Shown here: positions 4,559 to 49,139 of the stretch, piece after piece
Position numbering within the stretch: position 1 is the first letter of the stretch
Layout: each line of letters begins with the position of its first letter
Source of the DNA: Deltaproteobacteria bacterium
GTDB taxonomy: Bacteria > Desulfobacterota > DSM-4660 > Desulfatiglandales > HGW-15
Reading direction: 5' to 3'
Assembly (NCBI GenBank): GCA_016931115.1
Contig: JAFGFM010000144.1
Span: 68,008 to 132,007 of the forward strand
Length of the DNA: 64,000 nucleotides
Notes under the pieces: generated by a model
Seen by the model: the letters and a program-made list of their open reading frames with translations, nothing else
What the model was told of the DNA's origin: nothing
Database searches by the model: none
Made by a program: the position numbers and the translations under genes

Positions 4559-5299
4559 TCAATTCAGCGCCGGGAAAAAGACCCTGCATTTGATCCCCGC
4601 AGGCAGTGAATGCCCGGGATTTGCGAGTACAAGCCGCACACCGAATGTGCCGCTTGCAGCGTCTATCACAGTATCCACAACGCTTACCGTTGCCTTCAGC
4701 TCCCGTGAAACAGGGTTCTCTATCCTGATCCTGGCAGTTGAGCCCTTTTTGATCCTGCCATACTCCCCGGCAGGCATAACAACCTCCACATAAAGCGGGT
4801 CAATCCGGGCAATAGACATTATGGGTTTATCACTTACATACTCTCCCCTTGAGATAAACCTCTCAACAACAACGCCATTCACAGGGCTCTTTATATTCTT
4901 TATTTTCAGCTTTTCAAGGGCCTCTTTATACTGAAGCTCTGCGATCGTGAGTTCTGTCTCCATCTCATCCTTGTCATGAATGGAGATAAGCTGTTTTTTA
5001 TATAGGTCTTCATTCCTCTGGCATTTTCTCCTCATGAATTCGACCCTGGCAAGGGCAAGGTCCGCAGAGGCCTTTTCAATGTCAGAATTAAGAGAGGCAA
5101 TTACATCATCTGAACTGACCTTGTCACCCCGGTCAAAAAAGGCCTGTGCAAGGATGCCCTCAACCTGACTGCTCACCTTCACCAGCTCACTGGGCTCAAC
5201 AATACCGTCATAATACAGCTCCTCACCATGGACCGCATTCGAAAGGATGGCCGAAATCATTATTAATAAAAATGTGCCTTTGAGCAGGTTATGTTTCAT
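4559..5299 (-). CDS. HlyD/efflux-type periplasmic adaptor (membrane-fusion protein), small, signal-anchored
   Basis: Start at MKHNLLKGTFLLIMISAILSNAVHG (AAGGGG RBS), 13 nt after the SecA-like stop. Lipoyl-like hairpin (VSSQVEGIL...GDKV...IKSPVNGVV), coiled-coil segment and beta-barrel tail typical of MFPs. Last gene of the operon. Confidence 0.8.
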   Translation of the reverse strand: MKHNLLKGTFLLIMISAILSNAVHGEELYYDGIVEPSELVKVSSQVEGILAQAFFDRGDKVSSDDVIASLNSDIEKASADLALARVEFMRRKCQRNEDLYKKQLISIHDKDEMETELTIAELQYKEALEKLKIKNIKSPVNGVVVERFISRGEYVSDKPIMSIARIDPLYVEVVMPAGEYGRIKKGSTARIRIENPVSRELKATVSVVDTVIDAASGTFGVRLVLANPGHSLPAGIKCRVFFPALN

Positions 5300-5312
5300 T
5301 GATAAACCCCTT

Positions 5313-7316
5313 CTATTCAGAGCGCCCCGAAAATGAGAGCATATTGCCACGCCGCTCATCTTCTTTAAGCAGGTTTTTTCTCATGTCTGAATGGATATGT
5401 TCCATCCTCTTCTGTGCATACAATATGGCCTTTTTTGATAAAAAACAAAAGAGCAATGTCTTTTCAAATGGATAATTTACAGCCATCCATTTCCATAGCC
5501 CGGCTCTTCCTTTTTCAAGAAGGGTATCATCAAGGGATAACATGGCCTCAAAGCTTCCAGGGTCTCCCATACGGGCGCACCGTCCGGCAAGCTGACGGTC
5601 TATCCTGCCTGCCTCATGGCGTTCGGTAAGTATGACATGAAGGCCGTTAAGCTTACTCACTTTTTCCGAGAGCTTAATATCAACTCCGCGGCCAGCCATG
5701 TTTGTAGCAATGGTAATGCTGTATTCATTACCGGCCTGGGCAATAATATCCGCCTCTTCCCTGTCCTGTTTCGCATTCAGTATCCTGAAGGGTAAGCCCT
5801 TCGCAGCAAAATATTTCCCGGCCTTTTCCGAAGCGGCTACCGAATGTGTGCCTATAAGCACAGGCCTTCCCTCCTTATGCATGGCATAAACCCTTTCTGA
5901 AACAGCCTCCCATTTCTCCTCTTCTTTATAAAATACCCTGTCAGAAAACAATTTTCTGCTGTTAGGTTTATAGGTGGGGACGGTTATAACATTGAGCCCA
6001 TATACCTTAATAAGCTCATTTTTCACCTCACGGGCAGTGCCTGTCATCCCGGACAGCTTTATGTACCTTCTAAAAAATCTCTGATAGCTGATACGGGCAA
6101 GAACCTTTGTCTGTTTTGATATCTCACACCCCTCCTTTACCTCAATTAGCTGATGCAGCCCCTTTTCATAGGACCTGTCGGCCATCACCCTGCCGGTGAA
6201 TTCATCAATGATCTGCACCTTTCCATCGCGCACCATATACTGTTCATCAGGTTTGAAAAAATGTATTGCCGAAAGGGCAAGCCTAACGATCTCGGCCCTT
6301 CTTACCTTGCCTGTCCAAAGGGGGCCAAGTCCTGCTGATAATCTAACGATCATCTCTTCACCGCCTGGGGTCAGCCTTATCTCATGGCCAGGGATATTGA
6401 TACTGTAATCCCTGCCCTCGGTCAATTTGCCTGCCAGATCAATAGCCTGATGAAAGAATTTATGTTCATCATGGAGAGTTTCACTTTGACCTGAGATAAT
6501 GAGCGGTGTCCTTGCCTCATCGATCAAAACACTGTCTGCCTCATCTACAATAGCAAAATGAAGGCCCCTTAAAAGAAGCCTCTCTATCCGCTCACTCCCG
6601 TTATAGAGGTATTCAGCATGAAGCTTAAGCTTATTGCCCCTGTCTTCAAGGATGAGCCAGTCCTTAAGGTAGTCAAAAACTATCTCCTTGTTGGTGCAGT
6701 ATACTATATCCTTTTCGTAAGCCCTTCTTCTCTCTTCTGGCGTCATGCCATGAATGATAAATCCTGTGGTTAAACCCATTGCACTGTATATGGAAGATGT
6801 CCATTCTGCATCCCTCTGTGTCAGGTAATCGTTTACGGTTATAACATGAACAGGAATGCCTGCGAGCGCAACAGTCCCAGCTGCAAGGGTTGCGGTAAGG
6901 GTCTTCCCCTCTCCTGTCTCCATTTCAGCTATCATGCCGTCCAGCATGACTTTTCCACCTGCGATCTGTGTATCAAAGTGTTTAAGGCCCTTAATCCTTG
7001 AAGAAAACTCTCTTATAATAGCAAAGGCATGGCTGGCGTTTTTCTCTGTCATCCCCTCCCTTCTAAATATCGCCCTTAATTCATCCGCCTTTGTTCCAAG
7101 TTCTGTTTCTGTCAATCCTTCCAGGTTTGATGATAATTGTTCCACCTCTCCTGCAAATCTTTTAAGTCTGCGCCTGTAACCTTTAAAAGGTGATGAAAAG
7201 GAGATAACCAGATTTTTATATATTCTATCCAGCGCGTTTGTCCTCCTGTCAGCCTTTTCAGGCCTCAATATATGGGAGGCTGGAGGAAATTCTGTCCTGT
7301 TGAATAGCATGGTCAC
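5313..7316 (-). CDS. SecA-like ATPase (truncated SecA paralogue, 667 aa)
   Basis: SecA motor motifs. Walker A MIAEMETGEGKTLTA (ETGEGKT = nt 6900-6920). VHVITVNDYL. VDEADSVLIDEARTPLIISG (VDEAD = nt 6534-6548). LSGMTGTA. ATNMAGRGVDIKL. GLHVILTERHEAGRIDRQLAGRCARMGDPG. The GTG start overlaps the upstream stop (GTGA); an alternative ATG is at 7310. Confidence 0.85.
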   Translation of the reverse strand: MTMLFNRTEFPPASHILRPEKADRRTNALDRIYKNLVISFSSPFKGYRRRLKRFAGEVEQLSSNLEGLTETELGTKADELRAIFRREGMTEKNASHAFAIIREFSSRIKGLKHFDTQIAGGKVMLDGMIAEMETGEGKTLTATLAAGTVALAGIPVHVITVNDYLTQRDAEWTSSIYSAMGLTTGFIIHGMTPEERRRAYEKDIVYCTNKEIVFDYLKDWLILEDRGNKLKLHAEYLYNGSERIERLLLRGLHFAIVDEADSVLIDEARTPLIISGQSETLHDEHKFFHQAIDLAGKLTEGRDYSINIPGHEIRLTPGGEEMIVRLSAGLGPLWTGKVRRAEIVRLALSAIHFFKPDEQYMVRDGKVQIIDEFTGRVMADRSYEKGLHQLIEVKEGCEISKQTKVLARISYQRFFRRYIKLSGMTGTAREVKNELIKVYGLNVITVPTYKPNSRKLFSDRVFYKEEEKWEAVSERVYAMHKEGRPVLIGTHSVAASEKAGKYFAAKGLPFRILNAKQDREEADIIAQAGNEYSITIATNMAGRGVDIKLSEKVSKLNGLHVILTERHEAGRIDRQLAGRCARMGDPGSFEAMLSLDDTLLEKGRAGLWKWMAVNYPFEKTLLFCFLSKKAILYAQKRMEHIHSDMRKNLLKEDERRGNMLSFSGRSE

Positions 7317-9457
7317 ACACTGAATTTACTTAAAAATGTACGTCTTATTCCCTTGTAGATCCTTATGAAAAGAGGCTCATACCCGTGGTTGAATTTTACA
7401 AGCACCCTGGAGCCGATATTGGATATACGCGGATTCTCAATTGATATTTCAAAATGAAAAAGTTTTTCAAATGCATTAACCCTATCAGTGTCAGCAGGAT
7501 TAAGGGCATGTTCGCCTCCCCCTTCAAGAGAGAGGGCAAGACTTGGCAGTTCTGTGGATGCGGCAGGGATTTCTCTGTAAATACGGCCTGGATATGATTG
7601 CCCGGGGGTTTCCACAAGCATAGCCTCAACAGTACCGGGTTTCACCCTGATCCTGTCTATATCCCTTTGCGGCACCACTATCCTGGCAGTTACCCTGTTA
7701 AAATCCACAACATACCCTATCTGTACCCCCCTTCTTAAGTAAAGGCCAATAAGGTTTTCCTGGTCAGGAAGAAGAAATATACCCTCCGACGGACTTTTTA
7801 CTGTAAGGTTTTGGATCTGTTCAGTGATGTTTTTCAGCTCTGCGGATATCCGCCAAATCTCATCCTTTAATATCCTGGCCTCTATCCGGTCACGTGTCTC
7901 TGCAAGGTTGTGGCGCAGTTCATATTCCTTAACTATTGAATCCAGTTCTTTTTTTTGTGTTTCAAGATCCTGATTTACACATACTATAAGAGGATCGCCC
8001 GTTTTGACTTTTGAGCCTGAAGGCACGATAACCTTTTCTATGTATCCATCTGCGCCGGCATAGAGTCTTGAATTTTCAGGGGGCCACAGCACCCCCCTGG
8101 AAATCGTATGGGAGGGGAATGGGATGATAAACAGAGTTGGAATAATTACTAGAAGAGAGATTAATGCTACACTGATTGCCCTTGCCTTTTTTCGCTTCAT
8201 CACAGGATCAGAAAAGAAAAACTTTACTATTTTTACCAGGGGCATAACAATAATGCCAGCCAGACCCCAGATGGCAAGCACGACCCCTACAAAAAAGAAT
8301 CGCCCTGCAATGAATATTGCAATTCGGATTGTTATGAAAATGCGGTACGTAAAGGAACTCAGGCCGTATATCACAAACCATTTTGCCTCACCCTTTGCAG
8401 TTACGGGACTAACAACATCTTCCATATTGAGCAGGTACCGCCTGAACAGATAACCGATATAACTGGCTGAACGCATTGCAAGATTGGGTATCTCAAGAAG
8501 ATCTGACAGGATATAATAGGCATCAAACCTGAGCAGGGGATTGCCGTTAAACAGGATTGTTGAGAGCCCCGCAACAATCATGACGTTAAAGCATACTGCC
8601 CTTATAATCCCCGGCTCTACATTGACCCATAGCAGCATTGCTAAAGACGCAAGCATTAGTTCGGCGAGGATACCGCTGGCCCCCACCATTACCCTTTTGT
8701 ATTTTTCTCTGAAGGCGGATGAAGATGATGCATCAACATAGGGGACAGGCACAAATACAAGGAACATAATTCCCATGTCATGTACCTCGCCCCCAAAGTA
8801 TTTTACTGTATAGGCATGTGAAAACTCATGCACAGCCTTGATTACCGGGTAGATTATCCACAGAAGAAACATGTTTTCAAGGGCAAGAACCCTGTCAGCA
8901 AGGTTCATGGTCAGTTCCTTAAAATGAAATGTGGCAAGAGATAAAGAGAAAAGGAGCAGGATTAAATAGAAGACAAGCCCTGTTCCAGTGAAGAGGGGCC
9001 TGACAAGAAACATGCTCTTTTCAAGAAATCTTTCAGGATCAATCAGGGGCAATTTTATTGAGAGCGGTGATTTTATCCTGCTCAGGATATCATTTTTTTT
9101 AAACCCTTTATTGCGCTCATAAAGTTCCTTTATATCGGGCGGGATATCTGCCTGAAGCAGGTCAGCCTGATGAAGTTGAGATAAAAGCATTATCACCTCA
9201 TCCTGGGTAGGCATGTCATCTCCCAGCATTTCGCAGGCCGATTCCCATATCTCTTTAAGGCTGTTTTTACCATCCATCAAACCAATTATATAGTACGCCT
9301 CCTTTGAAAACCGATGAAAGCCGCCCGTGTAATTATCCTGGAGTACATGCCATTCCTCGCCCCTGTACATTTGGTGATGTACCTTTGCGTGACTTCTTAA
9401 TACTGGCCTTAATGCTGAAACCCTGTACCAGGATTCACTGAAAAGAGAGCCGGTCAA
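7313..9457 (-). CDS. Fusion protein: PqqD-like N-terminal domain + M50 (site-2-protease-like) polytopic membrane domain + C-terminal HlyD-type membrane-fusion domain
   Basis: aa ~10-100 follow a PqqD/RRE-like pattern (ALRPVLRSHAKV...WHVLQD...FHRFSKEAYYIIGLMDGKNSLKEIWE...VIMLLSQLHQADLL). HEFSH is at aa 210-214 (nt 8816-8830) inside a hydrophobic segment. NPLLRFDAYY is at aa 305-314 (within nt 8513-8545), matching the S2P NxxPxxxxDG-type second motif. About 8 hydrophobic segments. aa ~455-714 form the lipoyl/coiled-coil/beta-barrel MFP part. Confidence 0.8.
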   Translation of the reverse strand: MTGSLFSESWYRVSALRPVLRSHAKVHHQMYRGEEWHVLQDNYTGGFHRFSKEAYYIIGLMDGKNSLKEIWESACEMLGDDMPTQDEVIMLLSQLHQADLLQADIPPDIKELYERNKGFKKNDILSRIKSPLSIKLPLIDPERFLEKSMFLVRPLFTGTGLVFYLILLLFSLSLATFHFKELTMNLADRVLALENMFLLWIIYPVIKAVHEFSHAYTVKYFGGEVHDMGIMFLVFVPVPYVDASSSSAFREKYKRVMVGASGILAELMLASLAMLLWVNVEPGIIRAVCFNVMIVAGLSTILFNGNPLLRFDAYYILSDLLEIPNLAMRSASYIGYLFRRYLLNMEDVVSPVTAKGEAKWFVIYGLSSFTYRIFITIRIAIFIAGRFFFVGVVLAIWGLAGIIVMPLVKIVKFFFSDPVMKRKKARAISVALISLLVIIPTLFIIPFPSHTISRGVLWPPENSRLYAGADGYIEKVIVPSGSKVKTGDPLIVCVNQDLETQKKELDSIVKEYELRHNLAETRDRIEARILKDEIWRISAELKNITEQIQNLTVKSPSEGIFLLPDQENLIGLYLRRGVQIGYVVDFNRVTARIVVPQRDIDRIRVKPGTVEAMLVETPGQSYPGRIYREIPAASTELPSLALSLEGGGEHALNPADTDRVNAFEKLFHFEISIENPRISNIGSRVLVKFNHGYEPLFIRIYKGIRRTFLSKFSV

Positions 9458-9500
9458 TTTTTTTGTCCTGTAAATTCAAAACTGTTTTAATTTATTCTTT

Positions 9501-11369
9501 TTATTTGAAATATTCCCAAAACTTTACTGCAAGCCATTCCTTCATGGAGCGTGTCCAGATAGAAAAAAGATTTCTTCTGTCTATATATATCTTCCCTATC
9601 CCCTCCATGCCAGGTCTCAGCCTGTCTGTGATCACCTCAGGGGCAGCCTCAACCCTGAAAAAATTCAACCCCTCTTTTGCAGCAGCGATGGGTGTAATCT
9701 TGTTTACTGTAAAGGCAATCTTTTCATTTGGCAGGGCTGACAGGATCATATGCCCCTTTTGACCCGTTGTTACATCGGCAATCCGTCGTTCATCAACCTC
9801 CAGTATGATCCTGTATTCATCCAGGGGGGCCACTTCAAAGAGTATTTCACCCTTGACAGCTGCCCCGCCCAGCCTTTGACTCAGGTCACCGCTTATTACT
9901 ATCCCGTTAAACGGTGATACAAGATTTGCCCTTTCAATCTGGCTCTCTGTGAGCTCAAGTCTTGCGCTGGCCTGATCAATCTGTGCCCTGAATATCTCTG
10001 CCTCAGCTCTCTCACGCGTTGCCTGCGCTTCCTGATACTGTTTTTCATACTGTGCCTTTTTACTCATCCAGTTGAGCCTCTCAAGACGCAACTCCCTGTC
10101 ATCCATCATGCACAGTTTCGCATCCTTATCCACACGGTCTCCTGCCCTTACATAGGCATCCTTTATGTAGCCTTCAAATGGCGCCACAATCACCCGTTTG
10201 ACAGCCCCTTCAAGGATGGTATTTGCCGGGAGCCTGTAATCCCCATCCTTTACAGCGAAAAATATGACCATGATAACAATAAGGATGGCAAAAAGTTTTC
10301 TACCGCCATATTCAGTCCCCATACCTTTTTTGATAAAGCATTTAAAACCATCTGAGGCTTTTGTCAGTATTGGCCTTTCCCTTTCAAACATCATTCTGAG
10401 TACTGGCTGTATCAAGGATGCTACACTTTTACAGTACATGGAATCATCATCTGTAAATGGCCCTGTTTTGCTTCTTTCAAGGGTGATTACATTTACATAT
10501 CTCTCTTCATCATAAAAGGGGATTGTAAGGATATATTCTGACCCATGCTGTCGGGCGAGGGATTCGTGATCCCGTACGATCTGGCGTTCATGCCCTGTGC
10601 CAGGATAGAAAACTTCCTTTTGCTGGCTTATTGCCTCATCCATTGCCTGAATAATAGCTCTGACAAGATTCATATTATCGGAAACCCGGCTGCTGTGGGA
10701 TACTGCCTGGATCTTTATCTTTTTGTTTTTGATATGGCCAAGGCTAACCCTGTCACACATCAGGCATGTGGCCAACTCTGTCACAAAGGAGAGGCAGGCG
10801 CTCATATAATCTTTTCTGGATACAACCTCTGCCATTAAATCTACTGAAGCCTTGAGTCTTTTAAGTAATTCTCCGGCATCATTTTCACGTTCACGGCGCA
10901 GCATGACCTCCATCCAGGAGATGCCCCACTGAAGCTGCTCCAGGGTATATTTCAACTCTTCTTCTGTTTCAGCCTTTACCTCGATCGCGACAAGCCCGCA
11001 AAAGATGGTACCGGTAAAAACAGGATAGGCAACACCATATGAGCGGACGCTATCCTGCCTGGCCCTCTCTTCATGATCAAGCTCCACAAGCATGCCGCTT
11101 TTATCTTCAATAACCCGCTCTGCTATCTCTGTAAGGCGTTCCGGGTTTGCACCCTTTTCAGGCCATTTTGCCGCTGGAGAAAAATTCTCCTTTGCCTGAT
11201 CGGAAAGGATAACTATACCCTGAGTAACATTGGCGATTATTGCACATTGGAGTGTAAGCCAGTAAAGACAGTATTCTTCCCTTTCTACAGCGCTTGTGAA
11301 CTGAGACCACAAACGGTTGTCAATCCTGGGTCGAAATTTTATTCTTTCGTAATTGTATGTTTTATTCAC
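9501..11369 (-). CDS. GAF-domain-containing HlyD-type membrane-fusion protein
   Basis: The ~350-aa cytoplasmic N-terminus looks like two GAF-like folds by pattern, not by HMM. One TM segment (KLFAILIVIMVIFFAV). Then MFP hallmarks (APFEGYIKDAYVRAGDRV, long coiled coil, LVSPFNGIV, beta-barrel). GTG start. Confidence 0.72.
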   Translation of the reverse strand: MNKTYNYERIKFRPRIDNRLWSQFTSAVEREEYCLYWLTLQCAIIANVTQGIVILSDQAKENFSPAAKWPEKGANPERLTEIAERVIEDKSGMLVELDHEERARQDSVRSYGVAYPVFTGTIFCGLVAIEVKAETEEELKYTLEQLQWGISWMEVMLRRERENDAGELLKRLKASVDLMAEVVSRKDYMSACLSFVTELATCLMCDRVSLGHIKNKKIKIQAVSHSSRVSDNMNLVRAIIQAMDEAISQQKEVFYPGTGHERQIVRDHESLARQHGSEYILTIPFYDEERYVNVITLERSKTGPFTDDDSMYCKSVASLIQPVLRMMFERERPILTKASDGFKCFIKKGMGTEYGGRKLFAILIVIMVIFFAVKDGDYRLPANTILEGAVKRVIVAPFEGYIKDAYVRAGDRVDKDAKLCMMDDRELRLERLNWMSKKAQYEKQYQEAQATRERAEAEIFRAQIDQASARLELTESQIERANLVSPFNGIVISGDLSQRLGGAAVKGEILFEVAPLDEYRIILEVDERRIADVTTGQKGHMILSALPNEKIAFTVNKITPIAAAKEGLNFFRVEAAPEVITDRLRPGMEGIGKIYIDRRNLFSIWTRSMKEWLAVKFWEYFK

Positions 11370-11468: not shown

Positions 11469-11792
11469 TTATTTAGTAAGATCAATCTTCAGTTCACCAA
11501 AACGCGCCTCATATTCCCGTAAAATGTTACCAAGCAGAATGGCAAGCCTCTTTGCGGCAAAGGGGTTCAGAATGATACGATTTGTAAGCTGAACCGTCAG
11601 CTCAGGCTGCCCTGTATGCCAGCTCTGGTTTGTCCCAAAAAGCATTGTAACCTCTTCCCGTGTGCTGGAAACATTGCACACATTTGCATAGGTGCTTGTC
11701 ATTTTTGAGTCATCCCAGCGCAGGGTCTGTGTTGCAACCGCCTTTTTATCATCTTTTACCTCTTCCATCTTTTCCTCATGTTTAGTGGCCAT
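11469..11792 (-). CDS. DUF3467-like small protein (107 aa)
   Basis: ...YANVCNVSSTREEVTMLFG...VQLTNRIILNPFAAKRLAILLGNILREYEARFGEL matches my recollection of the DUF3467 pattern (YsN..i.hs..EF.lDF...v.sRiil.P.hAKrLl.aL..ni..yE). AAGGAG RBS. Lies 72 nt after the giant gene. Confidence 0.7.
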   Translation of the reverse strand: MATKHEEKMEEVKDDKKAVATQTLRWDDSKMTSTYANVCNVSSTREEVTMLFGTNQSWHTGQPELTVQLTNRIILNPFAAKRLAILLGNILREYEARFGELKIDLTK

Positions 11793-11864: not shown

Positions 11865-14800
11865 CTAATTAAGCTCTTTTTTCTTTAAATATGACAACTC
11901 ATTGCCTGATTTCTTATCCAGCTCTCCGTTAGTCCATTTGACAAACTTCCTGAGCCTGTTCTTTCTATCCAGATTTATGAATCCTGATTTGTCTATAATT
12001 TTACCTGTTTCAGATTTTTTACCAGACAATGCACCCCAGCCGGTCAGACCTGCTACCATTGCTGTTATATCTATTTTCTGGTCCAGATTATCAGACCTCT
12101 CTTTTGCTTTCAAGCCTGTGCGAAGGTCATTATCCATATTAGAGAGACCGTCAGTATCCCTTCTTGCGCTCAACAATAATTTATTCAGTCTCAGGTCTGT
12201 GCCTTCATTCTCCGCTGAGCTGTTAATGATCGTACCATCCGGCAGCACCTTTATTATCCTTCCATCAGGATATGTCGTTACAGAAGATCCATCCGGGTTT
12301 TTAATTGTTTTGGTACCATTAGGCAAGGTGATGGTAATGGTGCCATCAGGGAATATCATAACCTCCCTGCCGTCAGGTGCGTTCCTTACTATTGTTTTAT
12401 CCTGTTTAATAACTTCTATAAGGCCATTCGGATAACGCTTTTCAATTGCGCCATCAGACAGGATTGAGGTTTTAATTGTGGCTTTTCCCTGGCCCTGATT
12501 ATTACCGTCAGAGAGATGGCTGTAATAGCTACCCATACCAAAAGCCTCTTCCGGTCCGGTAATTACTGTCCCTGATGCAATTGTTTTACTCTCAATCTGC
12601 ATAAATAGAGACCTGTCAGAAGGGTGGAGAATGTTTTCTCCTGGCGAGGTTAATCTTCCGGCTTTAGATAATGCCCCTTCTGCCATATTATATTGAGGTG
12701 GGTAAACCCTGTTAACCCTGTATTCTTCAAGGATAACCCTTCCATATTTGCTGATCAGGACATCCTCAGGGGCTTTTTTGTTGATAATGTCTTTACCCTC
12801 ACCGCCAAAGAGGATATCTGTACCTTCACCACCATCAAAAATATCAGCCTCTCCATTGACTGTATGCCTGGTCTCTATTGTGACAGGGATACCATTACTG
12901 AACTGAATAAATCCATTATCACCAATGAGGATATCAGTGCCATTTCCTCCTGAAATCGTGTCTTTACCCTCACCGCCCAAGAGGATATCATTGCCATTGC
13001 CTCCGGATAACACCTCCTGTCCCCCGGAAGGTGCCGGGACGCTTATTACCTGGTAGACAACTCCATCTTCAAAGGTGACTATGCCAAGGTCACCAATTAT
13101 GATGTCACGACCAATTCCAGCAGTTATTGTGTCATTGCCCTGACCCGCTATCGCAATATTTGCACCATCACCAAGGTTAACAGTATCATCCCCACCAAGG
13201 TTATCCAGCCTTGTGTCAATTTCAGTAAGGTCACCCACATCTGTAAAGATCATGAGGCCATTATCACCGGTTACATGGTCATCTCCTGAACCTCCGGTTA
13301 CAGTATCGTTCCCGCCACCTGCTATCACATAGTTGTTACCATCTCCAGAATCGATTGTGTCATCGCCCGTAGTGGTGTCATTCGTATCTGTGCTCTCCAT
13401 CAGGGTTACAATGCCATCTGTGATTTCAATTGTGCCGTTGTCGCCGGTAATGTAATCCTTGCCTGCGCCTGTTGTTACAGTATCATCCCCTGCGCCAGCG
13501 ATTATGTAACTGGTGCCATCTCCTGTTGTTATCTCATCATCACCGCCTTGTGTCGGGCTTGTGCTTTCCAGCCTGGTTATCACACCATTTTCATCTATCT
13601 CTATTACGCCCGAATCACCGATAATGGCATCATTACCAATTCCAGCTGTTATTGTGTCATTGCCCTGGCCTGCTATCGCAATATTGTCACCATCACCAGC
13701 ATCGATTATATCGTCACCCGTGGTGGTATCATTAGTATCTTTGCTCTCCATCAGGGTTACGATATTGTCAGTGATTTCAATATTGCCATTGTCACCAGTT
13801 ATGTAATCCTTGCCTGCGCCTGTTGTGACTGAATCATTCCCTGCACCGGCTATTATGTAATTGGTGCCATCTCCTGCGGTTATATTATCATTACCACCCT
13901 GAGTCAGGCTTGTACTTTCCAGCCTGGTTATCACACCATTCTCATCTATTCCTATTACCCCTGAATCACCGATAATGGCATCACTGCCCTCTCCAGCTGT
14001 TATGGTATCATTACCCTGACCGCCTATCGCAATATTGTTACCATTGCCAAGGTCAATATTATCATCCCCGCCAAGGTTATCCAGCCTGGTGGCTATTTCG
14101 GTAAGGTCTCCCACATCTGTAAAGACCATTGTACCATGATCACCCGTTACATAATCTTCCCCGGATCCTCCAGTTACAGTATCCTTTCCGCCACCTGCTA
14201 TCACATAGTTGTCACCATCTCCAGCATCGATTATGTCGTCACCCGTGGTGGTATCATTAGTATCTTTGCTTTCCATCAGGGTTACAATGCCATTTGTGAT
14301 TTCAATGGTGCCGTTATCGCCAGTGATGTAGTCCTCTCCTCCACCTGTTGTTACAGCATCATTACCTGCACCGGCTATTATGTAATTGGTGCCATCTCCT
14401 GTTGTTATCTCATCATCACCGCCCTGTGTCAGTCTTGCGCTCTCAAGTCCGGTTATAATACCATTTTCATCTATTCCTATTACACCTGAATCACCTATAA
14501 TAGCATCATCACCAATCCCAGCTGTTATTGTGTCATTGCCCTGACCTGCTATCGCAATATTTGCACCATCACCAAGGTCAAGGATATCATCCCCGCCAAG
14601 CTCATTAAGGCGTGTGGCTATCTCGGTAAGGTCACCCACATCTGTAAAGACCAGTGTACCATGATCACCAATCACATAGTCATCGCCTGAACCGCCGGTT
14701 ACAGTATCCTTTCCACCACCTGCTATCACATAGTTGTCACCATCTCCAGAGTCGATTGTGTCATCGCCCGTAGTGGTATCATTCGTATCTCTGCTCTCCA

Positions 14801-17800
14801 TCAGGGTCACGATATTGTCAGTGATTTCAACTGTGCCATTGTCGCCTACAATATAGTCATTGCCATTGTTCCCGGTGATATCATCATCACCAAAACCGCC
14901 AACAAGTATATCGTCTCCATCATTACCAACAATTACCTCATTACCACCAGAGTCAGGCTGAACTGATACTACCCCTGTAATGTTGTAATTAATATCACGG
15001 TCAATTGTTGCCTCATCACCAAAGATAACATCATTACCATCTCCGCCAAACAGGTTATCATTACCAAGCCCGCCTGCCAGAACCAGCTCGGCACCAGCAG
15101 GAACAGCTGAGGCGTCAATCGTATCATCTCCATCATCGCCATGAACCTCAAGTCTGCCTGAAATAACCGTCTCTTCTATGGTTATAACATCGTCTCCTTC
15201 ATTTCCCGATATCGTTGTAAGAGTATCACTTTGGATATCTACTACAGAGATTACATCTGCACCCCTTCCGAAGATAATTTTTATACCGCCCTCAAAGGTT
15301 CCATTGGTTGCTGCATAATTAATATCCGCAGGCGACATGCCGGAGACCCTGTTCTCTGTAATAATTACATTAATATCCGCTGTTTCTGATCCTGCATCAC
15401 TTATGGTAATGGTGTTACTGCCTGATTCTGTATCAATATTGATTGTTCCGTTTATGCCATCCAGGTTACCAAGGTTAGCCGGGGCATCAGAGGATATATT
15501 AACAGTGTCATTACCTGCACCGGTAAAGATATTTGTAACTGTTCCTGATGCTGTTGCCTGCACATTAACCGCATCATCCCCGCTTCCTGTATTCAGGTTA
15601 AGGTTTTCTATGGCGGTATACTGAACTGAGCCATTTAAACCCATGTTAAAACCTGTAATAGTATCCTCTGTCAAGGTCCCTGTTACAGCTTCTGTCTCTC
15701 CGGTAATATCAAGGTGGAGTGTATCAATGCCTGCCCCGCCATCTATATCAATCAATTCAAGAATATTTCTGATATTACCTGAATTATTGCTGTCAGGATC
15801 AGCATTGCTTCCTATGCTGATAGTATCATTACCACCCAGCGTATTGATTACAGTTGGTGAGGCTGTATACATAATAGGAATAATATCATTATCGCTGTTA
15901 CCAGTTATCGTTACGAGATTACCAGTAACCATGCCTCTCATCTCCAGGACACCGCCAACACCAGCGTCCGCATTTCCAAAATCTACATAGAGTTCCACAC
16001 TGTCAGCGGCATGAACAATTGCCCCATCCTCAATAATGAGATTATCACCTGCCCTAAGCTCTATTGACCCGGCAGTCGATATTACATTCACACCCGCCTG
16101 TACAGTCAAATGGTCTGCATCAGAATTATCCGCTGTGGTAAGAATAATATCGCCTGCCTCCATGCGTTCTGTAACGGTCATGGGGCTGTGGGCTGTGATC
16201 TCTATCCTACCTTCAGCCCTGATGCCATCATTCTCTGTTACCCCGCCTATGATAAGGTGGCCCTGGTTAATAAGCCATATACTGCCATGTACAGAGCGAC
16301 CTTCAAGGTGGCCGATAGTGGTTTTAATGGCCCTTGTACCTGAACCTATATTTCCATCTGCAAACAGCCATGCAGAGCCTGACAGGATATTATCCTCCTC
16401 ATCAAGCCTTGCATTAAGTATTGATGCCCCGCTTCCGATAAATGCGGTATAACCAGGCCCTGTAAATACCTGATAAATTGATAGATCCCCATCTGTTTCA
16501 GTAAGATAGGTATTTAATGAGCTGGTACTGATAAGGCTTCCTTCGCCTGAGAATGCGCTGTTTATATCAAGGTCATTACCTGATATCCCGATCCCTCCGA
16601 ACATGGCCTCAAGGTTAATGCTATTCCCTGTAATATCTGCCTGAAGGTCATTTTCAGCATCAAGTATGGATGCCACTGCTCTTAAAGTAACATCACCATT
16701 CGAAGATACAATACTGCCTGTTAACATGTCTCCATCTGTCTCATAGAGATAGATATCTCCGCCTGCGGTTGCATTCAGGATGCCTTCAGGATAAAGATTG
16801 ATATCAAGGTAGTTAATTGTGTCCCCTGTTTTGCTGCCTATGGAATCCCCTGCAAAGAGGTTCAAGACCTCTGTGCGGATATTCAGGTAGTCATCATCAA
16901 AGGCATCAAGGATGGACATGTCAGCAATAAGATCTATCCTCTTTCTTGAAAACAGAGTATCTACATTCATATCTCCATTTACTTCATGGATAAATATCCC
17001 GTTATTTGCCCTTGAAGTGAGTTTAGCACCGGAAGCGAGGTCTATGGTTACAGGAGCCCCATCAAGGCCAATCCCCTCACGCCCTGATTCGAGGAACAGG
17101 TCACCGCCTTTAATATTAGTTCCTGCCCCCGCAGAAGAATTGTATATGCCGCCCTTTGTCTTAAGCCTTATCTCCCCGTTGGGATTATCATCCGGCCCAG
17201 CCTGAATAGATATGATATTCACATCTGACTCAGAACCTATGAATATGAATTCTCCTGCTTTTATATCTATGCCTGCACCTGTATCCTGCTGCTGAATAAT
17301 CCTTATCTCGCTTCTCGTTATATTGATAACACCTGTATCATTCGACCCAAGGGCGTTTTCCTCTGTGTCAAAGAGTTTTATGGTGAATTCATCAATAACT
17401 CTTGCATAATAAATCTCTCCATCTGTTACACCGGAGATATTGCTTATTGTAAAGGTGCCGAACGGCCCAAAATTAACAGGGGTACCGCTTGTAAGGTCAT
17501 GAGCCGAGCCAAACCTTATTGTATTTAGAGCGGAATTACTTTCTGTAATATCTTCCGGATCTGTTGAATTGATCAGGTCATTTTCATAATCAGTAAGGTT
17601 TAAGAGTGTACCCTCTCCACCCATATCCCCTTCTGATGTGTAGATGCTGATCTCGGTAACCGTCCCGCCTGAGGAGAAATCTATATCCTCACGCTGGACA
17701 ATCCTTGCCTCACTGCGCGTGATATTTATCAGGCCTGTATCACCCTCTCCCGTCGCATGAGCAGCGCTGTCAAACAGTTGTATGGTAAAATCATCTATTA

Positions 17801-20800
17801 CCCTGGCATAATATGTAACACCGTCAGTTACACCCTGTATCCCTCCAACACCCATATTCCCGCCTGACCCGAATATTACTGCTGCACCCGATTCCAGTTC
17901 ATGAAGGGTGCCAAAGCTTACAGTGTTGGTATCAGACTTAATGGAGATGAGATCTGCCCTTTCTGCGGCAGCAAGGGCAGCCTTTTCAGAATCGGCAAGA
18001 TCAATCAGGGTGCCGCCCGATTCAAGGTCACCGTTTGAAATAAGGATAACCTGTTCGTTTAGAAAATTACCTATGCTCCCGGAGGCATTAATAACAACAT
18101 TTTTACCAATAATATTTGAGGACTCTATACGTGTCTCAGTATCAGTGGTCTCCTTGAGCCACCCTGCACCAAGAGAATATTTGAGCTGCTCCTCTGTCCA
18201 GCTTGAGCCTATTGCAAGTGCATCAACATCAGAGATGCTGTGATCCGTTCCTGTTGCCCCTGAAGCATCAATATCAAGATAGATACCAAGGTTTGCATTC
18301 TCCAGTGAGTCAGCCAGCCTTATTATCGACGGATTACCGGAATCGGCCTTAATTATGTAATAAATTTTATCCTCGGCCAGCTCCTTCCATTCGCCCTCTT
18401 CCATGTACCTAATTTTAGAACCACCGTTTGCATTGTAGACAACCCCTGTACCGGTAGCTAACAGGTTGACACCTATGTTGATGGTATCATTTGCGCTGTC
18501 CACATCCTGGGCGGGCGTGAAGAGGGGCTCATACCCGGGGTTAGCGGTATCATATTGCCAGTCAGGATTAAAGGTATCACCCAATACGCTGAAGCGGTTA
18601 TGAAGCTCATGGAACTCCTGCGTTCTTTTTAACTCCTCCAGGTCTATCCTGGCATCATCCCACCCCAGCTGATCCTTGTAAGCCTCCCTCTGGGCATCAG
18701 TCATTGTGACTTTAAACCCCGTATCGTATGCCAGCATATTTGTCAGAGAGAACCTCCCTTCTGCTAAAGGAGTGCTGATATTTATGGACTGGTCTGCATT
18801 TGCGTGTGAGAGAGAATCAGCAAGCCTGATGGTATGGCTGCCTACAACAATGGCATAATAGGTCTGTTTATCATTAAGCCCTGTTATTGTATCTCCTTCC
18901 ATCACCCGGTAAAGCAGGGCATCACCGGTTGTAAACCCGTGATCAGCATCAAAGGTAATAGAAGTACCGCTTACCTGGGAGATACTGTCTATATATATGG
19001 TACTTCCTGTTCTATATCCCCAGTAGGTATTATATTCACGGGTCTTAAGCCCCTTGTAGGCATCCTGTGTTTCCTTACCGTCATTATCAATGAGATTCAT
19101 CTCATCCCACAGATCAGCGAGCTCAGCCTCTGTGCGGACATCCCGTCTTTCAAGCGTATTTACATCTACAAGGTTTCCGTCATCAATGGTGATATTTACA
19201 TCGCCATCAAGGGATTCAATGGCCACAACCCTGAGATCATCAGATATCTCATGTAAATATATGTCATTAAATGCATGGGCTGTAATGGCATCAAACTTAT
19301 CGTCATCATCATAGTTGTTATCATTATTTGTATTAATGCGTAAATTCAGTGATGAGGTGCCCAACGCTCCTGTTAAGGATGTCAGGTGTATGTTATCCCC
19401 GGAGATAAGGGAGCTGTTATCATTAGCAAAAATGCCCCCTTCTGATGCCATTACCACATCATCATTTGCAGATATGACCGTGTCGACAGTAACCTTGCCC
19501 TCTATCTCTTCAATAGCAACAAGGCCATCTGCACTGGCTGTAAGAAGACCGCCAGCTACATCAGTACGTACAGACTTATAATGCTCTTCAACTGCGGTCA
19601 GGGTTAAGGGGTCAGTATTGTATTCAGTAGTTGTATCATCCGTTACATTGTAGAGAGTAAATCCATCATTGTCTGTTATTGAAACCAGGCCTGAGCCGTT
19701 TTCAAGTGTAATTGTGCTTTCAGTAATTGAGGCAATGACAAAATCCTTATTGTTATTCTCCCCCAACCCATCAGTGAACCTGATAATATCTCCTGCATCA
19801 TATCCCTCTTCAGTCCATTTACCGCTGTTTCTCCTGATCGTCGCCCTTACCTGATTACCGATGGTTCCATTAGCTGCCTCAAGGGTTATATTTTCTGCCC
19901 TGATAAGCGCAAGCTCTTCAAGCTGGTTTATAGAGCCGTTTTCTGAAACAATGGCCGTCGGGCCGGAGAGGTTACTTATAACACCGGTAAGGTTTATGTC
20001 GGTGTCAGATGTGATCTCAACAACGCCTGTTTCATACCCCATAAACTCAATCTTTACAGGGTAGTCTGCCTTGACACTGTGATAATCATAATTGGTGCGG
20101 CCTACAGAGGTAATTCTCTCAAGGTGATAGGTCTTTGTAGAGAATATCCACCACCCGCTCGTTGTTACCCATTCCCTGGTATATACAACAGGATCTCCAA
20201 GGCTGTTGAATTCATAGGCATAACCTGGATTGGTTGTTCCATCGTTTTCCTTCTCAACAAATTTGCTTTCAGGTTCGAGATCTACCGGTGTCGGATCAAC
20301 ATAATTGTAATAGCTTCTGGATTGCCCATTTGCATAGTTAATGCCCCAAAAACTACTGCTTGTCCACTGTTCGGTCAGGACAGAGGTCTCTGAATATCCT
20401 GTTACCCAGTAATACCTCTGGCCGGAAACAGGCTGATATGTGGCATTACGGCCATCAATAATGGCGCTGGACCCTGAAACCACATTCTGAGTATCATTAT
20501 CTGTTACCTGTACAGAATTCCCTATCCTTGTATAGGTCGTTGTAAGTGGTTTGTAAACATTCGGGTCACTGTCCACATCATAGGCTGTGTCTGTGATAAT
20601 TACCTTTCCCTCTATGCCATTACCCATCCCCTTTACAGTTAGACCTTCAGAGATATTGACTTCATTAACAAGGAATGCGGTTGAATCAAGTTCAAGGCCC
20701 TTTTCCGTTACACGGACCACCTTGTATTCACCGTTATTATTTGCTGAGCCGGTAATTACTATTGTCTGGCCGTCACGGTATCCCTCTTCAATCCAGCTCC

Positions 20801-23800
20801 CTGCATTACGTGTTACCGTGTCCGAATCTGCGGTATGATTGAAGGTGATCCAGTTGCCTACCACCTCAAGTGTAGTAGAGGTGCTGACTTCACTGGAAAA
20901 ATCACCCCCTTCAAGTACAAGGTTAAGGTCTCCCACGGATTTCACAACATATATGCCATCATTCCCATTTGCAGAGTCTAAAATCCTGATCGATTGCCCC
21001 ACATAAAAACCATCAGTTATCCAGCTCCCTGCGCTCCGGCTTATTGTATCATCTGCACCTGTGTCTGAAAGGGTGATCCAGTTGCCGCTGATCTCAAAAG
21101 AGGAGTTGTCACGGAATTCAGTGGTAAGCGTCGCTCCTGCTGTAAGGGTAAGCGCCTTTTCCTCCACCCTCTCAACAGTATAGACCCCGTTATTACCTTC
21201 CTGTGAACCAGTTATGCGTACCTGCTGTCCCTCACGGAAACCATCAAGTATAAAGCTGCCTGTCTGCCTTGTAACTGTATCAGCCCCTGAAGCGCCGTTA
21301 TCCTTGAGTGTAATCCAGTCAGCTCCTGTTACTAGCATATCCCGGCCCGTAACACGCAGGTCAGCGCCGGTTAAGATCAGCTCCTCATCCTCTCCGGTTT
21401 TTATACTCTGTACATCAATTACATAGGAGGACTGATTATCGATTTTTATCTTGCCAAATCCATCCACGACCTTGAGCAGCCCATCTGTGTCCGTTGCAAG
21501 GATGTGCCCTGTAAGTTTTATCAGGCCTCCATCAACTGATACATCATCTATAATAATACGGTTGGTTTCATGGTTATAAAAGACCTCTATATCTGAATCT
21601 GTAAGAGTGATCCAGTCGCTTTTACCCTCTGCTTCCAGTGTTGATATTCTCTGATCAAGTGTGGTTGTCGTCTTATCCTTCAGTGTTACAGAAGAGGTAT
21701 CCTGAAGAGTTAGTGTACGATCTGCATTTCCGCTCTGGATCGGGCCATTAATATTAAGCACCCTTGCGGTGATAAACACATTGTTACCGGCAATAATGGC
21801 ACCATTCTGGGCACGATGTGCGGTATTGCTGCCGGTCCAGTTGCTCCCTCCATCATACTCGGTTCCGTCAGGATTAAATTTTTGAGTGCTATCACTTGCA
21901 GTTGCAAGATCATCCCATACTGCTGCTGGGTCTCCGCCCACATGCTGGGTATCAGTAGCTATGACAACATCCCTTCCGGCCTTTATCTCAACCGTCTTGG
22001 CCTTTATAGATGTCCTCTGCTCAGGAACTGTTGAATCATCATCCTTAATAAAGATGCTTCCCTCTTTGTTGGCGATACTTACTGTCCCCTCTATATTAGT
22101 AATATTTGAGCCCAGTATCTCTATATCCGGGGGTGGCGCTGATGCGAGCAGCCCTGTTGGTGGAGGATTATAGGTATTGCGTATCTCTATAAGGGGATCT
22201 GCTGAATTCTTGTCAGTAATGATGCTGCTGAATTGCGCAAGCCTGCCTGACCTGTTCCGAGCCTGTATGTCGCTATTACTGTAAACCCTTGCACCGTTAA
22301 AGGTGACATTTCCACCAAGGTCCAGGACAGTAAGGTCTTCCTTGATGCGCAAATAATAGGGGCTGTGATTTTCTATGGTGATGCGGGTATCCCCGGGGGC
22401 ATCGAGTTTTCCTGATCCTGAAAGTGTATCGCCTGAGATTATTATATCACCGCTTCTCGCGATAATCTCAGGGGTCTCAATAAATGTGACCTCCATATTT
22501 CCTACAACAGCGCCATCCGGGCTTAAAAGTCCAAGTTCGCCCGCCTGGTATTTAAGCTGGTCAATCTGCGCCTGTATGCCTGCAAGGGCCTTTCCATCTC
22601 CCCCATAATTTTGCTTATCCAGCTCCAGCTTATCTATCTCAGCTCTTATAGCTTCTGCTATATCTGCCTTTACCTCAAGAGGCATATCGACTCCCGGGGT
22701 ACGGTAGATAAGGTCTGAAATAGTGCCCGGTTTTATGGGTGTCGCATAGATTTTCATCCCTGCATACGTCTCGTTTTGACTGATCCTGTGGTTTCCATCC
22801 AGTATAAGAGAGTAACCGCTTATCTCCTGAATCCTGTATGTCCCGTCATTTCCTTCAGAACTACCGCGTATTACGATATACTGGTTTGCCTGGAACCCTT
22901 CGGCAGCCCAGTCACCGGTTAAGCGGGTAATGCGGTTGTCTGCCACTGTCAGGGTAAGGCTTGTCCCCTCTGTGAGTGACACTACCTGTTCAATGGATTT
23001 TGGTGCAATACCTGTAATATTCCTGCTTGCTGACGCAATGTATGTTTCATCAGCATCAAAGGTATCATACCCTGTTGCAAGGATAAGGGTGTCCCCTGTA
23101 GCCAGTTCTATCTTGTATATGCCGTTATTACCACTTGCAGACCCTGTAATCCTTATATACTGCCCTGTTGCAAAACCAAGATCTGACCAGTCTGAACTAT
23201 CAGTGAGTTCAATCCTGTCCTGGCTGCCACCAACGCCTCTTGTGAATAATATCCCTTTCCCATATGTTACCTCAACCACCTTTGCGGCAGGGGTCTGAAT
23301 AAGGGTATCTGTATCAGTGTTTGTTTCATCATGGGTTAATTCATACCCATCCTTCAGCCTGATGACAGTTGCAGTAACACTCTCAATTGCATAGTCGCCA
23401 TCATTATTATCAGAACCTTTGATAACAATCTTCTGATCAGCAGCAAACCCGTCAGTTACCCATGAACCGGAACTGCGCTCTATCCTGGCGTTGTCTATTG
23501 ACCATGTGATGTTCGCTGTAGCTGATGCGCTTACCGTTGCGGTTGTCTGTCCGCCGTTATCAACCATATCAAGGGTAAGTGGGCCGTTGACGTACATAGT
23601 GTTCCCGGAAACAGAAAGGATAGTATAAGAACCATTATTCCCTGAAATATCCGCCCCTGAGAAGGTGACCTGCTGATTTTGCCTGTAGTCAGATGACCAG
23701 CTGCCTGACTGGTTTATAACCTTTGCATATTCATGCTCTCTCTGGGCTGTGAAGCTGACATTATCTGATATAGTAAGGTTTAAGGTAAACAGAGAGCCAT

Positions 23801-41279: not shown

Positions 41280-42827
41280 CTACTTAAGCCACTCATTGAC
41301 AACCGTGATATCTTCCTGTGCAAGCAGGCCGACCGCCTTTTTGAGCCTGAAGCTGTAGATAATGTACTCATACAGCGATTTGGTATACTCCTGCTTGGTC
41401 TGGTACAGGTCCCTTTCTGCATCTGTTACAGCAAGGCTGGGGAACATGCCGGACTTGAATCCCTCTTTCTTGGCCGTGAGTGTAATCTGGTTACTGATCA
41501 TTGCCTCTTTCAGGGCATTGATATTCTCTATTGAGCTTTTAATACCCAAGAACGCTGCCTTGGATTCCCTGGTTGCGGATCTGATCTCTCCTTCAAGATC
41601 CTCTTCAGCGGCCTTTAAAAGAAGCCTTGCCTCCCTCACCTTTGATGAGGTGGAGAAGCCGTTAAAAATAGGGATCTTAAGTTCAACTGCCCCTTCCCAT
41701 CTCTCAAGATCGCTCCCGCCGCCATATAATGACCCATCTTCTATATCCCTGTTCATCCTGCCAACAAGATTAAGAGTCGGCAGATGGCCTGAGTTCTGTA
41801 TTGAGACCTCTTTTCCTGCCACAACCACTCTCTTCTCCTTTACAAGCACATCAATATTCTGCCTTCTTGCTGAAGCGACCCATTCATCAACATTATCAGG
41901 TATCGGGGTTATCAACGGGATTGTGTCCCATGTGTATGCCACTGTTTCTCCGGGGTTCAGGCTGTTGAAGCCCTTTATATCTATATCACCTGTCCCAGGA
42001 GATTGTTTTTCATCAGTAACGGCAGCCTTTGTGCCGCCATTAATATTTCTTGCGCCAGGTTCAGAGAGGTAACTATCAATCTTGATATCGGGCAATATTA
42101 TGGTTTTAAGATCATCCATCCGCCTGCCAGTTATCTCAGCCAGCCCCTCAAGGGCATCTTCAAGGATATGGTCAGCCCTTACACGCTTTGTCGTAATAAC
42201 GGCAAGCCGGGCCTTTGCGTCATGGAAATCGGTAACAGGGGCAAGACCGTTTTCGTATCTTTCCTTTGCAAGATTATAATGCATATTAACAGCCGCCTCT
42301 TCCGATCTGCTGAATTGAAGGATATCCTTTGCCTCAAGCGCTGCAAGGTATGCCTCTGTAACCCGGAGAATGAGTGTCTGTTTTGCTGTCTCAAGCTCCA
42401 GATCAGCCTGCCTGACCTCCTCCTTTGCCTGTGAAAGCCTGACAATAGATGAGTATTTAAAAAGAGGCTGGCTCAATACCAGATCAAACCCCTTACCCGG
42501 ATATTTTGCAGTGCTGTCGCCATATACCACAACCTCATTGTCAAATATCTCATGCCTTGAACGTTTGTAAAAGGCATCAAAACTGACAACAGGCAGTATC
42601 TCAGCGAATGCCTGATTATATATTTCAGGCGATGCGTTGTGCCGGTGTATCTCCTTCTGAAAGGTTGCATCATTCTCAAGGGCAACCTGATAGACCTCAA
42701 GCAGATCAGAAGAATATGCAGACAGAGAGCAGATGAACAGTAACAGAGAGCAAAAAGAGAGCCTTATAAATCCTCCTTTAATGCCCCCTGAAAAACAGTA
42801 AAAATATCTTGAGATAATTGAATACAT
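41280..42827 (-). CDS. TolC-family outer-membrane channel protein
   Basis: Signal peptide (…LLLFICSLSAYSSDL) and GGGAGG RBS. Two-fold repeated TolC pattern (LLEVYQVALENDATFQ..., ...AERDLYQTKQEYTKSLYEYI...) with a ~70-aa insertion between the halves. First gene of the operon. Confidence 0.87.
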   Translation of the reverse strand: MYSIISRYFYCFSGGIKGGFIRLSFCSLLLFICSLSAYSSDLLEVYQVALENDATFQKEIHRHNASPEIYNQAFAEILPVVSFDAFYKRSRHEIFDNEVVVYGDSTAKYPGKGFDLVLSQPLFKYSSIVRLSQAKEEVRQADLELETAKQTLILRVTEAYLAALEAKDILQFSRSEEAAVNMHYNLAKERYENGLAPVTDFHDAKARLAVITTKRVRADHILEDALEGLAEITGRRMDDLKTIILPDIKIDSYLSEPGARNINGGTKAAVTDEKQSPGTGDIDIKGFNSLNPGETVAYTWDTIPLITPIPDNVDEWVASARRQNIDVLVKEKRVVVAGKEVSIQNSGHLPTLNLVGRMNRDIEDGSLYGGGSDLERWEGAVELKIPIFNGFSTSSKVREARLLLKAAEEDLEGEIRSATRESKAAFLGIKSSIENINALKEAMISNQITLTAKKEGFKSGMFPSLAVTDAERDLYQTKQEYTKSLYEYIIYSFRLKKAVGLLAQEDITVVNEWLK

Positions 42828-49051: not shown

Positions 49052-49096
49052 ACCATTGATAAATCATAGAGTAATCAGCTCTTGAAAAATTTATGC

Positions 49097-49116: not shown

Positions 49117-49139
49117 ACTTTATATCGGTAAAAGTTTTT

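Follow-up and report, generated by a model that had tools for sequence, protein, structure and literature searches.

Fusions of a recognition element for peptides made ribosomally and then modified post-translationally (RiPPs), called the RiPP recognition element (RRE), to a site-2 protease (S2P) are already known and have served as a handle for daptide discovery. In daptide pathways, a leader with a conserved acidic-Leu-acidic motif is taken off by MpaP, an intramembrane peptidase whose action is described as RRE-dependent. The daptide precursors share an N-terminal ELExMEAP motif, and changes of the leader at L(-7) or M(-4) abolish MpaB/MpaC processing, which depends on the RRE of MpaB. RiPP processing is also known from other M50 enzymes; for EpeP, a double role in cleavage and export of its peptide has been suggested (PMC10885120). 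The export of proteins of at least 10,000 amino acids (aa) by bacteria is poorly understood. Here we describe a locus on contig JAFGFM010000144.1 of a Deltaproteobacteria bacterium (the window, which means the whole stretch of 64,000 nucleotides analysed), in which one gene encodes an RRE, an M50/S2P-like membrane domain and a periplasmic adaptor as a single polypeptide. The catalytic motifs of this fusion protein are invariant, its gene belongs to a conserved cassette linked to giant genes with an N-terminal LEPR-XLL motif, and the cassette almost never has a conventional energiser close by. Our results suggest that the fusion protein probably acts in the inner membrane, where it would recognise and process the leader of giant LEPR-XLL proteins as one subunit of a conserved secretion machine that spans the envelope.

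The open reading frame (ORF) of the fusion protein and its parts lie in the window as follows.

7313..9457, minus strand: whole ORF, RRE, M50/S2P and periplasmic adaptor fusion, 714 aa plus stop
9152..9406, minus strand: PqqD/RRE-type domain, aa 18-102, predicted to be cytoplasmic (profile against the PDB, Pfam PqqD in homologues, AlphaFold2 model, Foldseek)
8123..8986, minus strand: M50/S2P-like domain with seven transmembrane helices (TM1 to TM7), aa 158-445 (NF041824, Pfam M50, hydropathy, AlphaFold2 model, Foldseek); the helices span approximately aa 158-177, 193-220, 252-279, 284-304, 357-386, 388-416 and 424-444, on which hydropathy and model agree
8816..8830, minus strand: HEFSH, the HExxH zinc/catalytic motif, aa 210-214, at the predicted cytoplasmic end of TM2 (invariant H210, E211 and H214)
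8522..8548, minus strand: NGNPLLRFD, the second S2P motif, aa 304-312, with D312 as the presumed third metal ligand (conservation)
7316..8122, minus strand: periplasmic adaptor (membrane-fusion) domain, aa 446-714, with lipoyl halves, alpha-hairpin and beta-barrel (HlyD_D23, TIGR01730, Foldseek)
7811..7972, minus strand: adaptor alpha-hairpin, aa 496-549, two helices of ~27 residues with a conserved D523-R524 at the tip (secondary structure)

An earlier note on this DNA had read three parts in one polypeptide at 7313-9457, and profile searches together with an AlphaFold model bear this out. The ORF lies at exactly these positions on the minus strand, encodes 714 aa and begins at a TTG start codon. 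Among the 120 best homologues, the majority are exactly 714 aa long and cover the full query, and thus both the start and the fusion are real rather than products of a frameshift or an assembly artefact. Significant relatives made up 6,722 of the 8,000 candidates scored. An exhaustive search of 50%-identity cluster representatives (E<=1e-30) returned at least 4,364 clusters of ~715-aa homologues, with almost all of the 150 best representatives at ~715 aa, and a scan of one genome per species found a relative in at least 587 species. The triple fusion is a very large family across many Gram-negative phyla: the lineages that carry it include Desulfobacterota, Gamma-, Beta- and Alphaproteobacteria, Acidobacteriota, Planctomycetota, Rokubacteria and one Flavobacteriales metagenome-assembled genome. 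The closest named relative, from a Desulfatiglans sp., is 74% identical. Public names for the homologues are only generic, such as ‘efflux RND transporter periplasmic adaptor subunit’ or ‘peptidase M50’; NCBIfam holds no dedicated model for any protein of the cassette, and in the full-text literature that is open without subscription we found no account of the triple fusion, the cassette or the function of LEPR-XLL.

The N-terminal domain, which the earlier note had taken for a PqqD-like RRE, is supported as such by both profiles and fold. Pfam PqqD (PF05402) aligns to aa 37-101 over profile positions 2-67 of 67; the match is weak (E=0.02 for the full protein and 0.0016 for the isolated N-terminus; 15.7-19.1 bits, under the gathering cut-off of 23.4). 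The same model matches 29 of 30 diverse homologues, at best with 1e-6. A profile built from 30 diverse N-termini found only PqqD/RRE chains in the PDB, namely PqqD 3g2b over the whole domain length (E=6.7e-6), followed by 5sxy (6e-4), 5vrd and the lasso-peptide RRE TfuB1 6jx3 (0.079). The full-length AlphaFold2 model is mediocre overall (predicted local distance difference test score, pLDDT, 69.7) and good in its C-terminal third; re-prediction of aa 1-450 with 150 homologues gave a pLDDT of 89.6 and a predicted template-modelling score of 0.84. In this second model, aa 24-97 fold as beta-beta-beta-alpha-alpha-alpha, the winged-helix-like topology of RREs, with strands at aa 24-31, 34-41 and 47-50 and helices at 52-59, 67-81 and 85-97. 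Foldseek against the PDB matched this part to TbiB1 (5v1v, TM-score 0.76), TfuB1 (6jx3, TM-score 0.70), TruD and CteB with probabilities of 0.91-1.00, all of them lasso-peptide and cyanobactin RREs solved with leader peptides. Across the 150 homologues, the conserved R32, R49 and L95 fall in strand 1, strand 3 and helix 3 of the model, in or near the sites at which RREs bind their leaders.

The membrane domain carries the marks of an M50 protease. NCBIfam NF041824, ‘daptide biosynthesis intramembrane metalloprotease’, matches aa 20-407 with E=4.7e-44; Pfam M50 matches with E=8.7e-5 and 22.4 bits, under its cut-off of 27.2. In a Foldseek search of the PDB with the aa 1-450 model, the S2P of M. 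jannaschii (3b4r) ranks first, with a probability of 0.99 but a weak superposition. HEFSH sits within the modelled helix 193-220, as expected for the HExxH of M50 enzymes, and NGNPLLRFD supplies the second motif with its aspartate ligand (NxxPxxxxDG type). A beta-hairpin at aa 228-241 between TM2 and TM3 of the model stands at a place that is also typical of S2Ps. The earlier note had quoted HEFSH at nt 8816-8830 and a downstream NPLLRFDAYY; both are present, the latter at aa 306-315, and H210, E211, H214, N304, N306, P307, L308 and D312 are invariant among 150 homologues of 39-81% identity. We considered and rejected the idea of a dead scaffold, as the invariance of both motifs indicates that the protease site is under selection and not a relic.

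The seven predicted helices and a KRKKAR cluster before the last of them agree with the topology proposed in that note. Since the number of helices is odd and the C-terminal adaptor is necessarily periplasmic, the RRE is predicted to lie in the cytoplasm, and both metal motifs near the cytoplasmic face of the membrane.

TM7 (aa 424-444) precedes the adaptor domain as a membrane anchor. Pfam HlyD_D23 recognises the adaptor with 32.7 bits (cut-off 30), and TIGR01730 with E=3.3e-9; TIGR01730 and TIGR01843 both stay under their cut-offs. Foldseek of the C-terminal part retrieved MacA, MexA, AcrA, ZneB and EmrA at E~1e-11, and a profile matched MacA (3e-7) and the membrane-fusion protein of the HlyB-HlyD complex 8dck (7e-6) in the PDB. 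The lipoyl, hairpin and beta-barrel architecture that had been proposed for this part thus finds support from both sequence profiles and fold. A loop in the beta-barrel region, ‘PAAS.ELPS.ALS.EGGG..AL.P’ (window 7396-7567, minus strand; aa 631-687, chiefly 631-654), is invariant across homologues and has a model pLDDT below 50; it could be a contact surface for partner adaptors or a channel lining.

The fusion gene is one member of a cassette. In the window the genes stand on the same strand in the order TolC, giant protein, DUF3467 protein, GAF-transmembrane-adaptor protein (GAF-adaptor), fusion protein, SecA-like protein and 266-aa adaptor, and the partners of the fusion protein are the following.

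9501..11369, minus strand: upstream partner, the GAF-adaptor, 622 aa, with a cytoplasmic GAF domain, one transmembrane helix (aa ~355-373) and a periplasmic adaptor
5313..7316, minus strand: downstream partner, the SecA-like ATPase, 667 aa, whose start overlaps the stop of the fusion gene (GTGA)
4559..5359, minus strand: short membrane-anchored periplasmic adaptor, 266 aa, transmembrane helix at aa 25-43 (TIGR01730, 119.7 bits against a cut-off of 94.9)
11469..11792, minus strand: DUF3467 small protein, 107 aa (Pfam, E=2.6e-21)
41280..42827, minus strand: TolC-family outer-membrane channel, 515 aa (TIGR01844, 240.7 bits against a cut-off of 225.15; Pfam OEP, E=1.7e-50)

To place this arrangement in context, we compared 82 loci from many phyla, each count taking in only those loci with enough flanking sequence. 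The GAF-adaptor gene lies directly upstream of the fusion homologue in 65 of 69 loci, the SecA-like gene directly downstream in 70 of 72, and the short adaptor after the SecA-like gene in 56 of 65. DUF3467 is found upstream of the cassette in 35/63 loci, and a very long RTX (repeats-in-toxin)-containing ORF that runs off the 10-kb flank in 32/57. TolC adjoins the cassette in three loci (L013, L033 and L040) and in the window. These counts indicate that the unit of selection is a core cassette of four genes, commonly attached to a giant gene. Cultured carriers of the cassette include Methylobacterium, Mesorhizobium, Geomonas paludis, Marinobacterium rhizophilum, Desulfuromonas acetoxidans and Desulfobulbus rhabdoformis.

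The SecA-like protein aligns to residues 10-601 only of Bacillus subtilis SecA (E=1e-130). Like SecA and SecA2 motors, it has a DEAD motor, a preprotein cross-linking domain and a second nucleotide-binding domain, and it retains the Walker A motif (MxTGEGKT) and the VDEADS box; unlike them, it ends at about B. subtilis SecA residue 601. The wing domain, the C-terminal tail and the greater part of the scaffold are therefore missing, and with them the two-helix finger by which SecA inserts into SecY. The protein scores under every NCBIfam SecA/SecA2 cut-off, and its homologues, all of ~664 aa, are named only ‘preprotein translocase subunit SecA’. SecA-like domains that are also without scaffold and wing occur inside giant Omnitrophota proteins, according to a preprint (bioRxiv 10.1101/2023.11.21.568195) in which a term search returned neither HlyD nor TolC nor M50.

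How does this system compare with those already described? Like daptide MpaP (NF041824), the fusion protein has an N-terminal RRE fused to an intramembrane M50 protease with HExxH, and the homology spans aa 20-407. At 151 bits against the equivalog cut-off of 300, however, it is not a member of that family, and it adds TM7 plus a periplasmic adaptor, ~290 aa in all. The presumed substrate has ~10,000 aa, whereas that of the daptide system is a peptide of ~25 aa, and none of the daptide cluster genes (aminotransferase, methyltransferase, dehydrogenase) was found in the window. The hosts differ as well: the producers in the daptide papers are Microbacterium and Staphylococcus, unlike the Gram-negative lineages in which the fusion family is found. 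Both of these producer genera are Gram-positive.

Similarly, the C-terminal part resembles the adaptors MacA, MexA/AcrA, EmrA and HlyD in its lipoyl, hairpin and beta-barrel elements, in the transmembrane anchor before them and in having a TolC gene in the locus. Unlike these, it shares its polypeptide with an RRE and a polytopic protease and is one of three different adaptors in its operon, and no membrane-proximal domain was seen in it. The hairpin of HlyD is long, whereas that of the fusion protein is short. Tripartite adaptors work with an inner-membrane transporter of the ATP-binding cassette (ABC), resistance-nodulation-division (RND) or major facilitator superfamily (MFS) type. Every other large ORF of the 64-kb window was scanned and none encodes an ABC, RND or MFS transporter; in the 82 loci such a partner is hardly ever close by, with ABC-like ORFs within 10 kb in only two or three of them.

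Type I secretion of giant RTX adhesins (HlyBD-TolC, LapBCE/LapA, SiiCDF/SiiE) shares with this locus a giant repetitive RTX substrate, adaptors and a TolC-family gene beside the substrate gene. Here, however, a truncated SecA-like ATPase stands in place of the ABC transporter, and the presumed substrate has a conserved N-terminal LEPR-XLL. Three adaptors, TolC and an RTX substrate are present; an ABC transporter is missing in the window and in almost every related locus. Since an ABC, RND or MFS energiser is lacking, the system falls outside the definitions of both type I secretion and tripartite efflux pumps. The fusion protein itself combines known kinds, an RRE-S2P module and an adaptor; a new secretion route may lie in the system as a whole.

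The giant gene between TolC and DUF3467 encodes the presumed substrate.

11865..41216, minus strand: giant protein, 9,783 aa
41067..41132, minus strand: LEPR-XLL N-terminal motif, aa 29-50, ...RRRMLFETLEKRILLSADP..., the presumed leader (NF012209, 29.1 bits against a cut-off of 17)
40179..40775, minus strand: DUF4347 domain, aa 148-346 (Pfam, E=4.5e-50)
12780..15740, minus strand: cluster of RTX-type Ca-binding nonapeptide repeats near the C-terminus, aa ~8493-9479 (HemolysinCabind, E=7e-46, and motif positions)

The protein starts with a basic stretch followed by MLFETLEKRILLSADP, which is the LEPR-XLL domain. The closest named relative of this N-terminus, at 66%, is again from a Desulfatiglans sp. 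In three other loci (L013, L058 and L069), every visible N-terminus of a large gene beside the cassette has LEPR-XLL and DUF4347. We also ran the test in reverse, starting from six LEPR-XLL/DUF4347 fragments picked solely for their long contigs. Four of the six lie immediately downstream of a cassette (L083, L084, L087 and L088); the other two have no cassette within 10 kb, and their giant genes run past the flank, as does that of the window. Among 120 homologues of the DUF4347 N-terminal region, 63 have the motif, with the consensus (F/L)ExLE(P/K)RxLLSAD after a basic stretch, and the other 57, mostly cyanobacterial, begin directly with DUF4347 and have no LEPR-XLL. This split identifies LEPR-XLL as a separable N-terminal module. 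The presumed leader has two conserved glutamates. Proteins with LEPR-XLL are annotated in public databases without an assigned pathway. Taken together, the LEPR-XLL start of the giant protein and the genetic linkage of such proteins to the cassette lend support to the giant-protein N-terminus as the candidate ligand of the RRE.

We then propose a model for the system, in which leader binding, leader cleavage and the energy source are the steps that we infer. By analogy with the leader binding of RiPP RREs, the RRE of the fusion protein would bind the basic stretch and (F/L)ExLE(P/K)RxLLSAD leader of the giant protein. The SecA-like motor, with its ATPase core and preprotein clamp kept and its SecY-docking parts lost, would feed the unfolded chain into a channel that the cassette proteins might form with their membrane domains. 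Removal of the leader by the M50 site would take place at the cytoplasmic face. The three adaptors may form a periplasmic tube to TolC for export in one step, and the RTX repeats would fold with calcium outside the cell.

It is tempting to speculate further that the cassette, made up of the GAF-adaptor, the RRE-S2P-adaptor, the truncated SecA-like ATPase and the short adaptor, with DUF3467 and TolC as optional members, represents an unrecognised, widespread type of one-step secretion, in which a SecA-derived motor replaces the ABC transporter. The N-terminal LEPR-XLL leader would select the substrates, which reach 15,183 aa in the loci examined; a RiPP-type element would read this leader, and an intramembrane protease that forms part of an adaptor would remove it. 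We advance this broader proposal tentatively and rate its chances at somewhat below even. If true, it would reveal a new mode of energising tripartite TolC systems, with a SecA-like motor where an ABC transporter is otherwise found. Leader recognition in the manner of RiPPs and leader cleavage within the membrane would then apply to giant proteins too, and thousands of genes that now bear no other name than ‘peptidase M50’, ‘SecA’ or ‘efflux adaptor’ would gain a function. In any case, its context makes the fusion gene more interesting than a lone odd fusion would be.

Several points weigh against a leader-processing secretion machine. No obvious protein-conducting channel was identified. The likeness of LEPR-XLL to the daptide leader amounts to three or four residues and could be chance, and the match to 3b4r is weak in superposition (E=0.027, TM-score 0.39). 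A motif search for the canonical R-L-S TolC-binding motif found none in the short hairpin of the fusion protein, and contact of its adaptor with TolC is an assumption; regex-level R-L-S matches occur in both partner adaptors and may be chance. TolC is adjacent in few loci only, and some genomes (for instance at locus L001) have the cassette with no giant gene nearby. Finally, a protein with RTX repeats is usually a substrate of classical ABC-driven type I secretion, and the gene for such a transporter could lie in another part of the genome.

In the main rival reading, the cassette is an accessory module and not a translocon. Export of the giant RTX protein would then proceed C-terminus first through a classical type I ABC transporter whose gene lies elsewhere, while the fusion protein would anchor the LEPR-XLL segment and later cut it for release, with a regulatory signal from the GAF domain, a logic similar to that of LapA/LapG/LapD but operated from the cytoplasmic side. 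The position of the RTX repeats near the C-terminus, the GAF sensor domain in the partner adaptor, the GGDEF/EAL genes that flank the system in one locus (L087) and the predicted cytoplasmic orientation of the protease active site all fit such a retention-and-release role. Yet the locus has three adaptors and a TolC gene, with no ABC transporter found in the window or in 79 of the 82 loci, and an ATPase with a preprotein-binding clamp, conserved in 70 of 72 loci, has no obvious place in a pure retention module. We therefore regard this alternative as unlikely.

The remaining alternatives are weaker. The RRE-protease might trim the leader of a small RiPP or bacteriocin for export through the adaptor and TolC, with the giant gene a mere neighbour. 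Among characterised proteins, those most closely related to the RRE-M50 module do serve as leader peptidases of RiPPs, namely daptide MpaP and the epipeptide protease YydH/LiaK, and the dual role suggested for EpeP offers a precedent for cleavage coupled to export. But the fusion protein scores far under both equivalog cut-offs (the 151 against 300 bits given above, and 30.8 against 225 bits), the window contains no RiPP-modifying enzymes and no candidate precursor peptide was identified, and what is conserved around the fusion gene is a SecA-like motor, adaptors and giant LEPR-XLL/RTX genes, which together make peptide maturation very improbable. Least probable of all, with only a slight chance, is a signalling protease acting by regulated intramembrane proteolysis on a membrane regulator such as the FecR-domain protein at 43347-47432, upstream of TolC, or an ordinary small-molecule pump adaptor, since, although S2Ps classically cleave anti-sigma factors, E. 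coli RseP cleaves FecR (PMC8144685) and public annotation reads ‘efflux RND transporter periplasmic adaptor subunit’, FecR-type genes are not among the conserved neighbours, the locus has no sigma factor and no RND, ABC or MFS pump, and the conserved RRE and SecA-like partner would be left unexplained.

Some further features of the giant proteins were observed. All DUF4347 sequences that we read share ‘I(I/V)SHG’ and ‘LLYGC(N/S)’ motifs, and the His-Gly ... Cys pair recalls clan-CD cysteine peptidases, which might point to self-processing. Chain G of PDB 9qpe, a ‘DUF4347 domain-containing protein’, matched with E=1.2 only and was taken as unrelated; no 9qpe chain matches the fusion protein or the GAF-adaptor. 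The DUF4347 protein PA0256 is a candidate Hcp-dependent type VI secretion effector. In several metagenomic contigs among loci L083-L088, many consecutive ORFs with cadherin-like and Big_9 domains stand downstream of the cassette in place of one unbroken giant gene, which could be due to assembly frameshift errors rather than real small genes. At locus L002 (1-5446), a called giant gene lies directly upstream of DUF3467 and the cassette; it encodes 15,183 aa, and an inserted transposase separates DUF3467 from the GAF-adaptor there.

The DUF3467 protein consists of a disordered N-terminus and a conserved YANVxNV..TREE..L.FG...AAKRL core. It matched nothing in the PDB by single sequence or by profile, and a SecB-like chaperone was rejected, as hhalign against E. 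coli SecB gave a probability of 0.6%.

Beyond the cassette, the region upstream of TolC (43347-51293, minus strand) encodes a FecR-domain protein, an SLT lytic transglycosylase, an OmpH/Skp chaperone and a protein with TPR and beta-barrel-porin-like parts; these may be envelope accessories of the system, or unrelated.

43347-47432, minus strand: FecR-domain protein, 1,361 aa

In the metagenomic contig of locus L087, a GGDEF+EAL response regulator and a PAS-GGDEF protein (848-2770 and 20035-20759) flank the cassette and the giant gene, which hints at cyclic-di-GMP control; the GAF domain in the partner adaptor would agree with this.

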